Source: Escherichia coli O157:H7 (GTDB lineage Bacteria; Pseudomonadota; Gammaproteobacteria; Enterobacterales; Enterobacteriaceae). From it: a DNA stretch of 64,000 bases. The notes below the pieces were generated by a model. It was not told the origin of the DNA. It searched no databases and saw only the letters and a program-made list of their open reading frames with translations. Shown in pieces: positions 5,262 through 50,637 of the stretch; the stretch's first letter is position 1, and each line of letters begins with the position of its first letter. The translations under genes were made by a program, and so were the position numbers. The stretch is taken from assembly GCF_013167455.1 (NCBI RefSeq), contig NZ_CP038328.1; one strand, written 5' to 3'.

Positions 5262-5553
5262 TTCTTTTTTAACTCTCACGCTTACCCTGAATATTCAGGG
5301 TAAGCGGTTTAGCTGCAATATATTAGTAAAGCTTATTACTGAGTTTGCGAATAATAAAAAAAGCAGTATATAAAATATCTCGATATTATTTTATTTATAT
5401 TCATGCGTCGCATATGAAAGTTTATTCATAACAGTAAATATCTCTCCATTCTTAGTGATCTACCTCACCTTTTAAACGCGCTTGCCGAATTTTGTTATTT
5501 ACTCTGACGAAAAATTGTCACGATACACGAAAGTTTTTCACAGGCGGCGACTC

Positions 5554-42918: not shown

Positions 42919-44943
<2,025 letters not shown>

Positions 44944-44944
44944 G

Positions 44945-45163
44945 ATGGAAAAAGAGCAGCTGATTGAAATAGCCAATACGATAATGCCGTTTGGCAAATA
45001 CAAAGGGCGTCGCTTAATCGACCTGCCGGAGGAGTATCTGCTGTGGTTTGCCCGCAAAGATGAGTTCCCGGCAGGGAAGCTCGGTGAGCTAATGCAAATC
45101 ACGCTGCTGATTAAAACCGAGGGGCTGACGCAACTGGTCCAGCCCCTGAAGCGTCCGCTTTAA
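44945..45163 (+). CDS. ypeB: small DUF3820-family protein YpeB
   Basis: 72-aa product from ATG 44945 (MEKEQLIEIANTIMPFGKYKGRRLIDLPEEYLLWF...), overlapping ligA stop by 1 nt (TGAGATG region). Confidence 0.75.
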   Translation: MEKEQLIEIANTIMPFGKYKGRRLIDLPEEYLLWFARKDEFPAGKLGELMQITLLIKTEGLTQLVQPLKRPL

Positions 45164-46158
45164 GCTTTATCGGCGCTGCTTTCCTGCTGCGCCTGTAACT
45201 GTTCGGTCTGGCGTTTGTATCGACGCGCCAGCACCGCACAGACCATCAATTGGATCTGATGGAAAATCATCAGGGGCAGCACCATCATACCGATCACCGA
45301 TGTGGGGAACAGAATGTTTGCCATCGGGATGCCATTTGCCAGACTCTTTTTCGAACCACAAAAGACGATAGTAATTTCATCTGCCTTATTGAAGCCCAGT
45401 CGGCGTGCCATAAAGACGTTAACTACAATCACGATAGCCAGAAGAACGCAGCTGACCACCACGATAAACAGCAATGATCCCCAGCCAACTTTATGCCAGA
45501 TACCATTAACGACGGCTTCGCTGAACGCTGTATAAACCACCAACAGAATGGACGTCTGGTCAGTTTTCGCAATCCATTTTTTATTGCGCGACACCCAGTC
45601 ACCAATCCACGGCCGGGAAAGATGCCCCAACACAAACGGCAGCAGCAGTTGCAGCATAATTTTACCGACCTGCTCAAGGCTGCCCCCTGCACCGTGAACA
45701 TTCATCACCAGACCAACCAGCAATGGTGAAAGGAAAATCCCCAGCAGACTGGATGCTGACGCAGAACAAACCGCCGCCGCGACGTTACCGCCCGCCATTG
45801 ACGTGAAGGCGATTGCAGACTGCACGGTAGCCGGGAGAATGCACAAGTAGAGAAAACCGGAGTAGAGCATCGGGTCGACATTTACCGGTTTCCACCAGGC
45901 AAACAGTACACCCAGAATCGGAAACAGCACGAAGGTGCTGCACATTACCCACAAATGCAGTCGCCAGTGACCACCGCCAGCAATAATCGCCTCACGCGAC
46001 AACTTCGCGCCGTGCATAAAGAACAGCAGGGCAATAGCTGCGGTGGTCAGATTTTCAAAGAAGGGGACGAAATCGCCTCTGGCAGGAAAGAAAGAGGCCA
46101 GCAACACCACCGTGATCAGGGTTAAGGTGAAAGGATCGAGGATACGAAAAAGTTTCAT
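45160..46158 (-). CDS. yfeH: bile acid:sodium symporter (BASS)-family transporter
   Basis: 332-aa polytopic membrane ORF; divergent from LysR-type yfeR. Confidence 0.85.
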   Translation of the reverse strand: MKLFRILDPFTLTLITVVLLASFFPARGDFVPFFENLTTAAIALLFFMHGAKLSREAIIAGGGHWRLHLWVMCSTFVLFPILGVLFAWWKPVNVDPMLYSGFLYLCILPATVQSAIAFTSMAGGNVAAAVCSASASSLLGIFLSPLLVGLVMNVHGAGGSLEQVGKIMLQLLLPFVLGHLSRPWIGDWVSRNKKWIAKTDQTSILLVVYTAFSEAVVNGIWHKVGWGSLLFIVVVSCVLLAIVIVVNVFMARRLGFNKADEITIVFCGSKKSLANGIPMANILFPTSVIGMMVLPLMIFHQIQLMVCAVLARRYKRQTEQLQAQQESSADKA

Positions 46159-46247
46159 AAAGACTCCAGATGATCGATGGTTCTATTGTGCTTCTTCCAG
46201 TTTGAGAAATAAAATTGATTTATTGCATCCATTCATGAAGAAAACAG

Positions 46248-47174
46248 ATGAATTATTCTTTAAAACAATTAAAGGTTTTCGTCACAGTAGCGCAGGAGAA
46301 AAGTTTTAGTCGTGCAGGAGAGCGTATCGGCCTGAGCCAGTCGGCAGTAAGTCACAGTGTGAAGGAGCTGGAAAATCATACTGGTGTTCGCCTGCTGGAC
46401 AGAACCACGCGTGAAGTGGTGCTTACAGATGCAGGGCAGCAGTTGGCTTTGCGTCTTGAGCGACTGCTGGATGAACTTAACAGCACGTTGCGCGATACCG
46501 GGCGTATGGGGCAACAACTGAGCGGAAAAGTTCGGGTCGCTGCCAGCCAGACCATTTCCGCGCATCTTATTCCGCAATGCATTGCTGAAAGCCATCGCCG
46601 CTATCCAGATATTCAGTTTGTCCTGCACGATCGTCCGCAGCAGTGGGTGATGGAAAGTATTCGCCAGGGAGATGTCGACTTTGGCATCGTCATCGATCCA
46701 GGCCCAGTGGGCGATCTGCAATGTGAAGTGATTCTTTCCGAGCCTTTCTTTCTGCTTTGCCATCGGGATAGCGCTTTGGCCGCGGAAGATTATGTACCCT
46801 GGCAGGCATTACAGGGAGCGAAATTGGTGTTGCAGGATTATGCGTCAGGCAGCCGACCGCTGATTGACGCAGCGCTGGCGCGCAATGGTATTCAGGCGAA
46901 TATTGTGCAGGAGATTGGACATCCGGCGACGCTGTTCCCGATGGTAGCCGCAGGCATCGGCATTAGTATTCTTCCCGCACTGGCGCTACCATTGCCTGAA
47001 GGTAGCCCGCTGGTGGTAAAGCGCATTACGCCGGTGGTGGAACGCCAGTTGATGCTGGTGCGTAGGAAAAACCGTTCACTTTCCACCGCCGCTGAAGCGT
47101 TATGGGACGTGGTACGAGACCAGGGCAATACGCTAATGGCTGGGCGGGAAGGGGATCCGTTGTATCAGATATAG
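46248..47174 (+). CDS. yfeR: LysR-family transcriptional regulator
   Basis: 308-aa ORF with N-terminal LysR HTH ([38 protein letters not shown]). Confidence 0.87.
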
Positions 47175-47506
47175 ATACCGATATGAGTCGTATTTTCAAC
47201 AGGATTTAGAAGGGATACATTCAGAGACAAACGCTGCTCTTTCTCCTGCGCCTTTTCTGCCTGCTGTCTCTGCAACTGCGCCAGTTGTGTTTCCAGTAGG
47301 GTGATTTGCTGTTGAATCAATTCGGCCTGTTTTTGCTTGTCTTCAGCACTGCCGCTAGTGTCTACAATCTCTTTAATGTGTTGAGTGAGTTTGATGATTT
47401 GCTGACTTATCCGCGCGATTTGTGAAGCAACATCGCTACCTTGTGATGCCCTGTTACTACTCTGTGTTTGTATGGAAGGAATTGAAGTTGAAGAGATAGT
47501 GGCCAT
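47165..47506 (-). CDS. FlxA-like Gln/Ser-rich coiled-coil protein (113 aa), probable sigma-28-dependent
   Basis: [29 protein letters not shown]...[30 protein letters not shown] 7 nt before ATG; visibly lower GC than neighbours; upstream sigma-28-like promoter. Family assignment from recall of FlxA character, not a search. Confidence 0.6.
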
Positions 47507-47534
47507 TGTTCAGTCCTCGTCACTGTACGAGGTA

Positions 47535-47561
47535 ATATCGGCAGAAGAACAAGGAACTTGA
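47535..47561 (-). promoter_or_regulatory. putative sigma-28 (FliA) promoter for the FlxA-like gene
   Basis: On - strand: TCAAGTTC-N11-GCCGATAT versus consensus TAAAGTTT-N11-GCCGATAA (6/8 and 7/8, exact 11-bp spacer), ending about 28 nt before the start codon. Confidence 0.55.
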
Positions 47562-47593
47562 GAAGAAAAATCAATCTTACAAATCGCAGATAG

Positions 47594-47621
47594 CAAAAAA
47601 GCGCCTTTAGGGCGCTTTTTT
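47594..47621 (-). terminator. rho-independent terminator of the valU-valX-valY-lysV operon (symmetric, A-run/T-run flanked)
   Basis: AAAAAAGCGCC-TTTAG-GGCGCTTTTTT hairpin immediately 3' of lysV. Confidence 0.75.
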
Positions 47622-47625
47622 ACAT

Positions 47626-47701
47626 TGGTGGGTCGTGCAGGATTCGAACCTGCGACCAATTGATTAAAAGTCAACTGCTCTACCAACTGAGCTAACGACC
47701 C
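47626..47701 (-). tRNA. lysV: tRNA-Lys (anticodon UUU)
   Basis: Reverse complement reads GGGTCGTTAGCTCAGTTGGTAGAGCAGTTGACTTTTAATCAATTGGTCGCAGGTTCGAATCCTGCACGACCCACCA. Confidence 0.95.
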
Positions 47702-49697: not shown

Positions 49698-50240
49698 TTA
49701 GCGCATAAAAGATAAACGGCAGGAGAGATACCCCTGCCGTTTTTTATTTATCCGGTGCGCCGTAAAACCCCGTCCTTCAGGGCGGGGATATAAGGCGCGG
49801 TTTTCCACCTGACCAGGTGTTTGCTGTTGTTCAATGTATTGGCGGATGACGGATATTGGCGCACCTCCGCAGCTACTGGCAAAATAGCCAGGACTCCACA
49901 AAACGCCTTTGTAGTAATACCTGACTGCAATATCTGGTCGATCTCGTCGCAGTAACCTACCCGATACGCCTTTGAGGCTGTTTACCAGACTGGATATCGC
50001 CAGTTTGGGAGGATAGTTAGTTAACAAATGGACGTGATCTGGTTCGCCATCCATTTCAACCAGTTCAGCTTCAAAATCAGCACATACATTTGAAAAGTAA
50101 GTGCGTAGTTTTTCTGTCGCGTCATAGTCAAAAATCTGACGTCGGTATCTGGTGACAAAGAACAGATGAACATGCATCAGGAAAACACAATGCCTTCCCC
50201 GTCGGATATCGGTTTCTTTATTCATAGACCAAAGTATCAT
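49698..50240 (-). CDS. tnpA: IS200/IS605-family Y1 (HUH) transposase TnpA, with unusual C-terminal extension
   Basis: ORF contains DIRRGRHCVFLMHVHLFFVTRYRRQIF...DHVHLL (HuH motif)...SPGYFASSCGG...IRQYIEQQQ; ORF continues ~40 codons beyond the usual end, through the gltX terminator. Start may be ATG 50225 (MNKETD...). Confidence 0.75.
   Translation of the reverse strand: MILWSMNKETDIRRGRHCVFLMHVHLFFVTRYRRQIFDYDATEKLRTYFSNVCADFEAELVEMDGEPDHVHLLTNYPPKLAISSLVNSLKGVSGRLLRRDRPDIAVRYYYKGVLWSPGYFASSCGGAPISVIRQYIEQQQTPGQVENRALYPRPEGRGFTAHRINKKRQGYLSCRLSFMR
49718..49747 (+). terminator. gltX rho-independent terminator
   Basis: CGGCAGG-AGAGATACC-CCTGCCG followed by TTTTTT, 20 nt after gltX stop. Confidence 0.75.
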
Positions 50241-50247
50241 TTGGCCT

Positions 50248-50583
50248 GTGAAACGACTACAGGCATTTAAATTCCAGTTAAGACCAGGTGGTCAACAGGA
50301 GCGTGAAATGAGGCGCTTCGCAGGCGCATGTCGTTTCGTTTTCAATCGTGCTCTGGCGCTTCAGAATGAGAATCATGAGGCCGGTAATAAATACATCCCT
50401 TACGGGAAAATGGCTTCCTGGCTGGTTGAGTGGAAAAACGCCACTGAAACGCAATGGCTTAAAGATGCCCCGTCACAGCCATTGCAACAGTCACTGAAAG
50501 AGCTTGAGCGGGCTTACAAAAACTTCTTCCGGAAGCGGGCTGCTTTTCCCCGATTCAAAAAGCGGGGACAGAATGATGCATTC
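50248..50583 (+). pseudogene. tnpB: tnpB (RNA-guided nuclease of IS200/IS605 family), N-terminal fragment interrupted by IS629
   Basis: GTG-start ORF (M)KRLQAFKFQLRPGGQQEREMRRFAGACRFVFNRALA..., typical TnpB N-terminus; terminates at the first triplet (TGA) of the IS629 left end. Confidence 0.8.
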
Positions 50584-50637
50584 TGAACCGCCCCGGGAAT
50601 CCTGGAGACTAAACTCCCTGAGAAAGAGGTAAACAGG

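Follow-up and report, generated by a model that had tools for sequence, protein, structure and literature searches.

The closest described counterparts of the locus analysed here are the LysR-type systems ilvY-ilvC, metR-metE and gcvA-gcvB, in which divergent, overlapping promoters share a short spacer with inverted repeats of the CTATA-n9-TATAG or T-N11-A type. In the case of IlvY, MetR and GcvA, the inverted repeats are arranged in tandem, with the regulator occupying its own promoter as well as the -35 region of the neighbouring gene (PMC5002191). The yfeR-yfeH pair of Escherichia coli O157:H7, found in a window of 64,000 nucleotides (the whole stretch of DNA that was analysed), resembles these systems in its layout. 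However, whereas ilvY-ilvC, metR-metE and gcvA-gcvB carry two to three tandem inverted repeats that have been footprinted, the yfeR-yfeH spacer contains one strong dyad and at best a weak second one; furthermore, YfeR is no more than a candidate binder here (negative in one gel shift), and no inducer is known.

YfeR has been studied in two other contexts. In Salmonella Typhimurium it was described as an LTTR under osmotic control that is required for optimal growth at low osmolarity (Banos et al. 2011, FEMS Microbiol Lett 315:63), and in E. coli K-12 biofilms it was assigned the role of an fnr repressor downstream of YbfA, according to the cascade YbfA->YfeR-|fnr->napA (Nat Commun 2024, PMC11227560). 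Both studies deal with the same orthologous gene, and the Salmonella locus has the same conserved block and the same 89-bp spacer as described below. Their subjects are osmoregulation and a biofilm cascade; neither study is known to define an operator in the yfeR-yfeH spacer or a substrate of YfeH. The original prediction had called the physiological role of the pair unknown. This no longer applies to YfeR, but stands for the substrate of YfeH, for which none is reported in the literature searched.

The divergent yfeH-yfeR pair

yfeH is located on the minus strand (45160-46158, with its start codon appearing as CAT at 46156-46158 of the plus strand) and encodes a protein of 332 amino acids of the SBF_like/SLC10A7 type, a part of the BASS superfamily. 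yfeR (46248-47174, plus strand) encodes a LysR-type transcriptional regulator of 308 amino acids. Open reading frames, Pfam and RefSeq annotation agree on the predicted arrangement, i.e. a LysR-type regulator and a BASS-family transporter gene that diverge across 89 bp. The names yfeH and yfeR were taken from the RefSeq annotation of an O157 record that is 100% identical over 45100-47600. Locally, the genes are arranged in the order zipA, ligA, ypeB (+), yfeH (-), yfeR (+), a FlxA-like gene (-), tRNA-Lys and three tRNA-Val (-), and gltX (+). Since 5,404-5,408 of 5,426 complete E. coli genomes carry the divergent pair, once in each, its arrangement is not a chance feature. As such, the yfeR-yfeH locus is nothing out of the ordinary: it has long been part of the annotation of E. 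coli genomes and has been studied in part.

The 3' end of yfeH overlaps by 4 bp (45160-45163) with the convergent ypeB, annotated as a DUF3820 gene on the plus strand (44945-45163); yfeH-ypeB is a listed excludon candidate in K-12. At the other side, yfeR runs tail to tail into the FlxA-like gene (47165-47506, minus strand; 113 amino acids, PF14282 with E 2.7e-13, over the gathering score), the overlap being 10 bp (47165-47174), as the original prediction had noticed. Both outer ends of the pair are thus convergent overlaps. Scans of 45900-46500 and 44900-47700 revealed no terminator-like hairpin at either of them.

YfeR contains an HTH_1 domain (PF00126; residues 5-64, E 7.7e-24) and a LysR_substrate domain (PF03466; residues 89-292, E 3.7e-48). 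These two domains, the length of 308 amino acids, the divergent neighbour and a T-N11-A box within an interrupted dyad identify it as a LysR-type regulator. The closest solved structures are those of CbbR and OxyR. In NCBIfam there was no equivalog for YfeR, the best matches (PsrA, a selenium-associated LTTR and CynR) remaining far below their cut-offs.

Conserved elements of the intergenic spacer

The yfeH-yfeR intergenic control region (46159-46247) comprises 89 bp and is identical in K-12. Its G+C content is 34% vs. 50-58% in the flanks, which makes it an AT-rich trough (27-34% G+C). The Shine-Dalgarno sequence of yfeH, GGAG on the minus strand (CTCC at 46164-46167 of the plus strand), is positioned 5 nt before the ATG and corresponds to the invariant alignment columns C36-C39; upstream of yfeR, no recognisable Shine-Dalgarno sequence was seen. 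The spacer further contains a conserved box 1, CTATTGTGCTT (46183-46193; invariant columns A57, T58, T59, T61, G62, C63 and T65), and, separated from it by 7 variable bases, a 32-bp block, TTTGAGAAATAAAATTGATTTATTGCATCCAT (46201-46232), in which 31 of 32 columns are invariant in eight genera. Inside the block lies the perfect dyad AATAAA-ATTGA-TTTATT (46208-46224; 6-5-6 geometry), a candidate dimer operator. The dyad includes a T-N11-A box (46210-46222) and agrees with the extended LysR motif CTATA-n9-TATAG, as defined in PMC5002191, at 7 of 10 positions (46207-46225), the ATA-n9-TAT core being intact. A second dyad, ATTCAT-N11-ATGAAT (46231-46253), spans the yfeR start codon and is only partly conserved: its left arm varies between ATTCAT, ATTGAT and ATATAT, and its right arm is coding. 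Within this second dyad we also noted an invariant out-of-frame ATGAA (46235-46239), 13 nt 5' of the yfeR ATG, which starts a mini-ORF of two codons (ATG AAT TAA) in several genera.

In a single AT-rich sequence, the LysR-box signal is no better than chance. The spacer has 12 T-N11-A matches (8.3 +/- 2.1 in dinucleotide shuffles), 28% of the shuffles contain a perfect dyad with arms of 6 bp, and 71% contain a 7/10 match to CTATA-n9-TATAG. The original prediction had suggested a search of the spacer for T-N11-A boxes; the best such box is part of a dyad in a conserved block, but the number of boxes does not rise above that of shuffled sequences. The dyad is the sole match of at least 7/10 to CTATA-n9-TATAG in the E. 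coli segment and is found at the same position in eight of eight genera. The weight of box and dyad comes from conservation, not from single-sequence statistics.

For the comparison across genera, loci were chosen by protein similarity and not by a DNA motif, using a scan of contigs with YfeR peptide patterns (eight loci) as well as look-ups of contigs encoding the exact protein. The eight genera are Escherichia, Pseudocitrobacter, Citrobacter, Pluralibacter, Enterobacter, Scandinavium, Kluyvera and Lelliottia. In all genera retrieved by protein similarity, ligA-ypeB-yfeH is followed by the divergent yfeR, and the spacer has a length of 89 bp in seven of the eight (88 bp in Pluralibacter). Of the four-fold synonymous sites of yfeH and yfeR, only 14 of 220 (6.4%) are invariant in the same eight genera; measured against these sites, the invariance of the 32-bp block corresponds to a binomial P of ~2e-36. 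YfeR itself is only 80-96% identical across this set, its helix-turn-helix segment being invariant save one residue and its recognition helix entirely so. The lone variable column of the block (46216, T/C) coincides with the exact centre of the dyad symmetry, as expected for the site of a symmetric dimer. A C-to-A exchange inside the block (GCAT to GAAT, equivalent to 46226) was encountered in E. coli SCPM-O-B-8794.

Metagenome contigs were scanned for the exact 25-nt core of the block, which was found in at least 120 contigs. Among the 120 contigs listed as matches, the core always lies beside yfeH and/or yfeR, with a yfeH match in 118 and a yfeR match in 118. The listed contigs contain 47 distinct spacers, of which 44 are 89 bp and three are 88 bp long. 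Because this set was selected by motif, it is informative about exclusivity and spacing, but not about conservation. In E. coli, core and block likewise occur at one place per genome. According to exact look-ups, the YfeR proteins encoded beside the metagenomic cores are those of Klebsiella pneumoniae, K. aerogenes, Salmonella enterica, the Citrobacter amalonaticus group, Kosakonia, Pluralibacter and Enterobacter. In all, the block is present in at least 11 genera (the eight retrieved by protein similarity plus Salmonella, Klebsiella and Kosakonia). A LysR neighbour was absent at all four distant YfeH homologues that were checked (52-64% identity), which indicates that the yfeH-yfeR pairing is confined to the Enterobacteriaceae. 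One of the four, a 60%-identical YfeH homologue of another lineage, is encoded divergently from an AraC-family regulator instead.

Proposed promoters and the candidate operator

We propose, with about an even chance of being correct, that the spacer consists of two fully overlapping divergent promoters and one dimer operator, most likely that of YfeR itself. The spacer would then be a compact bidirectional control region common to yfeR and yfeH, in which box 1 and the block provide the -35/-10 pairs of two weak, overlapping sigma-70 promoters. Judging from sequence and conservation, the putative yfeR promoter (plus strand) would be composed of the -35 element TTGTGC (46186-46191) and, at a spacing of 18 bp, the -10 element TAAAAT (46210-46215), with a start near 46222. 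For yfeH (minus strand), the -10 element would be CACAAT (46190-46185; CA(C/A)AAT across genera), combined with a weak -35 element on the bases of the yfeR -10 element (46210-46215) and a start near 46178. The -10 element of each promoter would fall on the -35 element of the other; with the elements superimposed in this way, RNA polymerase would be able to occupy only one promoter at once. Fully overlapping promoters would also explain the rigid spacing. According to our proposal, the dyad would serve as operator for a symmetric dimer, in all likelihood the pair of wHTH domains of YfeR. Its location on the yfeR -10 element would result in autorepression, and its centre near -38 of yfeH would suggest a class-II-like control of the transporter gene. 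The ligand of YfeR would probably be related to the cargo of YfeH. Among the points against this model is the dyad centre, which, at about -38 from the predicted yfeH start, deviates from the canonical -65 of the LTTR recognition site.

Consensus promoter scans (45900-46500 and 44900-47700) yielded no site in the spacer at threshold, and neither of the proposed promoters reaches it. The lack of a consensus promoter fits factor-dependent promoters. For yfeH, a constitutive promoter of the RpoD holoenzyme was reported by genomic SELEX, with TTCTCA (46208-46203) and TAGAAC (46185-46180) at a spacing of 17 on the minus strand (46180-46208; Shimada et al. 2014). Its sequence is present in the window; the TAGAAC hexamer is not conserved in the other genera.

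The spacer having been selected by RpoD holoenzyme alone in the genomic SELEX experiments (Shimada et al. 2014), one may ask if a dedicated operator exists at all. The block could be invariant merely as the sum of superimposed promoter cores, A/T-rich UP-like DNA and the yfeR leader, and it would be in keeping with this explanation that box 1 and the block are readable as -35 and -10 elements of both promoters and that the variable 7 bp between the two boxes behave as a promoter spacer. We nevertheless consider it improbable, as hexamers tolerate substitutions and 31 of 32 invariant columns exceed the need of two weak promoters, neither of which reaches the consensus threshold. Moreover, a symmetry with the lone variable base at its centre points to a dimeric binder.

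The block might also act at the level of RNA or peptide, as a leader peptide upstream of yfeH (MDAINQFYFS...) or as a structured 5' leader. In E. coli, a minus-strand ORF of 25 codons begins with an ATG at 46232 and ends with a stop codon that overlaps the yfeH ATG (ATGA), and this frame is open in many variants. However, the ATG is changed to ATA or ATT in about one third of the variants, the frame closes after 11-19 codons in several variants, and a Shine-Dalgarno sequence is missing; a coding sequence, moreover, would not be invariant at all of its codon positions. For the loss of the start codon in many variants, the early stops and the missing Shine-Dalgarno sequence, the leader ORF was rejected. 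A structured RNA leader was also rejected, since the region folds no better than shuffled sequences (z +0.47 and +2.46) and has no Rfam match. Thus, we regard a leader-based function of the block as extremely unlikely.

More serious competition for the dyad comes from the published binding experiments. His-tagged E. coli YfeR shifted Pfnr, but not a 150-bp PyfeR probe (PMC11227560); with a primer start at ~46101, the latter covers the whole spacer. In the same study, YbfA was reported to bind the PyfeR probe, and RNA-seq of a ybfA mutant revealed a decrease of yfeR by 2.09-fold and of yfeH by 2.02-fold, while yfeH was also down, with yfeR unchanged, in nirC and wzb (control) mutants (PMC11227560). 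A less likely alternative to our proposal is that another protein uses the invariant dyad as its operator, and that YfeR acts in trans (e.g. on fnr) and not at its own locus. Candidates for such a protein would be whatever factor mediates the stimulation of yfeR transcription by YbfA, or a regulator linked to osmolarity or associated with the nucleoid, and the adjacency of yfeR and yfeH would then reflect common upstream control and not a regulator-target pair. The failure of YfeR and the reported ability of YbfA to bind PyfeR, the roughly two-fold decrease of both transcripts in the ybfA mutant, the osmoregulation ascribed to Salmonella yfeR, the AT-rich trough (27-34% G+C) and the position of the dyad away from -65 are all compatible with this explanation. 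On the other hand, the geometry of the site is that of a LysR box. The block was found only at yfeH/yfeR, both in E. coli genomes and among the metagenomic matches listed, a distribution that is easier to reconcile with a dedicated local regulator than with a global one. Also, the gel shift with PyfeR represents a single negative control, performed with an N-terminal tag next to the DNA-binding domain of YfeR. YbfA is a small protein (68 residues) that is not known to have a DNA-binding fold.

With YfeR as the most likely binder of the dyad, yfeH would be a putative regulatory target of YfeR, an assignment that is partly contradicted by one published assay. YfeR may likewise bind and autoregulate at its own spacer, with the dyad as candidate operator, although one published gel shift was negative. 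The conservation of the dyad is in conflict with the published statement that YfeR leaves its own upstream DNA unbound. A counterpart of the dyad was not detected in the fnr upstream region (Pfnr), where the best match (12/21) is reached by 95% of shuffles. An IHF site on the minus strand, WATCAANNNNTTR, judged by eye, was rejected because its TTR part misfits and ATCAA is not preserved in several genera, owing to the T/C variation.

The transporter YfeH and the region downstream of yfeR

YfeH was assigned to SBF_like (PF13593, E 1.6e-113) and only weakly to SBF (PF01758, E 4.2e-8), which makes it a member of the SBF/SBF_like clan; NCBIfam gave no match. An AlphaFold (AF2) model of YfeH, calculated from an alignment of 63 sequences (pLDDT 92.8, pTM 0.89), had ASBT_Yf (4N7W) and ASBT_NM (3ZUX) as its best structural matches in Foldseek, with TM values of 0.78-0.85 and an rmsd of ~3 A at 15-18% identity. 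The model thus predicts an ASBT-type ten-helix fold. A YfeH profile also matches the ASBT_NM structure 3ZUY (E 6.6e-17), whereas a search of solved structures with the single YfeH sequence returned no match.

The Na1/Na2 ligands of ASBT_NM are reportedly S114, N115, S128, T132, E260, Q77 and Q264. Of these, YfeH retains S114 alone, according to the profile alignment. N115, S128 and T132 correspond to Ala, Q77 to Thr75 and Q264/N265 to K270/K271, whereas E260 is inserted with respect to the YfeH profile and has no counterpart; at 15-18% identity, all these assignments of single residues are tentative. The crossover motif EVGMQNS of ASBT_NM reads FCGSKKS(LA) in YfeH; throughout the YfeH family, Lys271 does not vary. 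The codons of K270/K271 are located at 45346-45351. An invariant K271 at the sodium-site motif of ASBT_NM may be a sign of sodium-independent coupling.

YfeH thus resembles ASBT_NM and ASBT_Yf in fold, but differs from them in Pfam family (SBF_like, not SBF) and in most sodium ligands. Its affiliation is with the same branch as human SLC10A7 and yeast Rch1, which has homologues in bacteria, yeast and plants; SLC10A7, the eukaryotic relative, has a role in calcium homeostasis and is not a transporter of bile acids. ASBT_NM, in turn, was crystallised with pantoate. With the sodium ligands mostly lost, no bile-acid transport by SLC10A7 and pantoate in ASBT_NM, the term "bile acid:sodium symporter" is a family label and not a function. 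YfeH, a carrier with ASBT fold from the SLC10A7/Rch1 branch, is probably not a sodium/bile-acid symporter; the initial placement in the bile-acid/sodium-symporter family holds for fold and family, but does not name a function. Phenotypes reported for yfeH are a weak defect in enteroid colonisation in Shigella and a moderate sensitivity to blue light. The Leptospira homologue, encoded next to tauD, was guessed to be a taurine importer.

What deserves attention at this locus is a conserved 17-bp dyad in a 32-bp block, at a near-fixed spacing of 89 bp, in a place where an orphan regulator and an orphan SLC10A7-type carrier appear to have overlapping promoters. One could speculate, though we think it on the whole unlikely, that the block is the sensor switch of a two-gene module for ion or osmotic homeostasis, in which YfeR requires the cargo of YfeH as ligand, or another protein binds, and in which YfeH is sodium-independent, with Lys271 replacing a sodium ion. 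If YfeR required a ligand on the dyad, this would explain the negative gel shift in the ligand-free assay. With a reporter based on the spacer, one could look for the signal and, through it, for the likely substrate of YfeH. The SLC10A7/Rch1/YfeH branch includes a human skeletal-dysplasia gene whose transport function is not known; if the above proposal is true, the operator would provide a simple reporter to de-orphanise the whole branch.

The overlap between yfeR and the FlxA-like gene had been regarded as particular to this strain. This turned out not to be the case: the same 10-bp overlap is present in Enterobacter, Scandinavium and Kluyvera (4 bp in Lelliottia), and the FlxA-like form was found in 1,306 of 5,426 (24%) complete E. 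coli genomes. FlxA-like orthologues with the C-terminus HQIDIY(I/V) occur in three other genera. We thus observe a presence/absence polymorphism downstream of yfeR. In O157-type strains, the FlxA-like gene and then the tRNAs follow directly, whereas in the remaining E. coli (K-12-type) similarity ends one base past the yfeR stop codon and yfeN-xapA-xapB-(DUF1427)-xapR precede the tRNAs. Kluyvera has both the FlxA-like gene and yfeN-xapAB. This distribution indicates that the FlxA-like overlap is ancestral and was lost in K-12-type strains.

In Pseudocitrobacter, yfeR is followed by yfeN as in K-12, and YfeR is 96% identical to its E. coli counterpart, compared with 87% for the adjoining YfeH. 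The yfeR-yfeN segment of this genus looks as if it had been recombined or horizontally exchanged. Finally, the annotation of the matching O157 record contains a truncated IS200/IS605 tnpA pseudogene and a gene for an RNA-guided endonuclease of the InsQ/TnpB family just 3' of gltX, at ~49815-50600.
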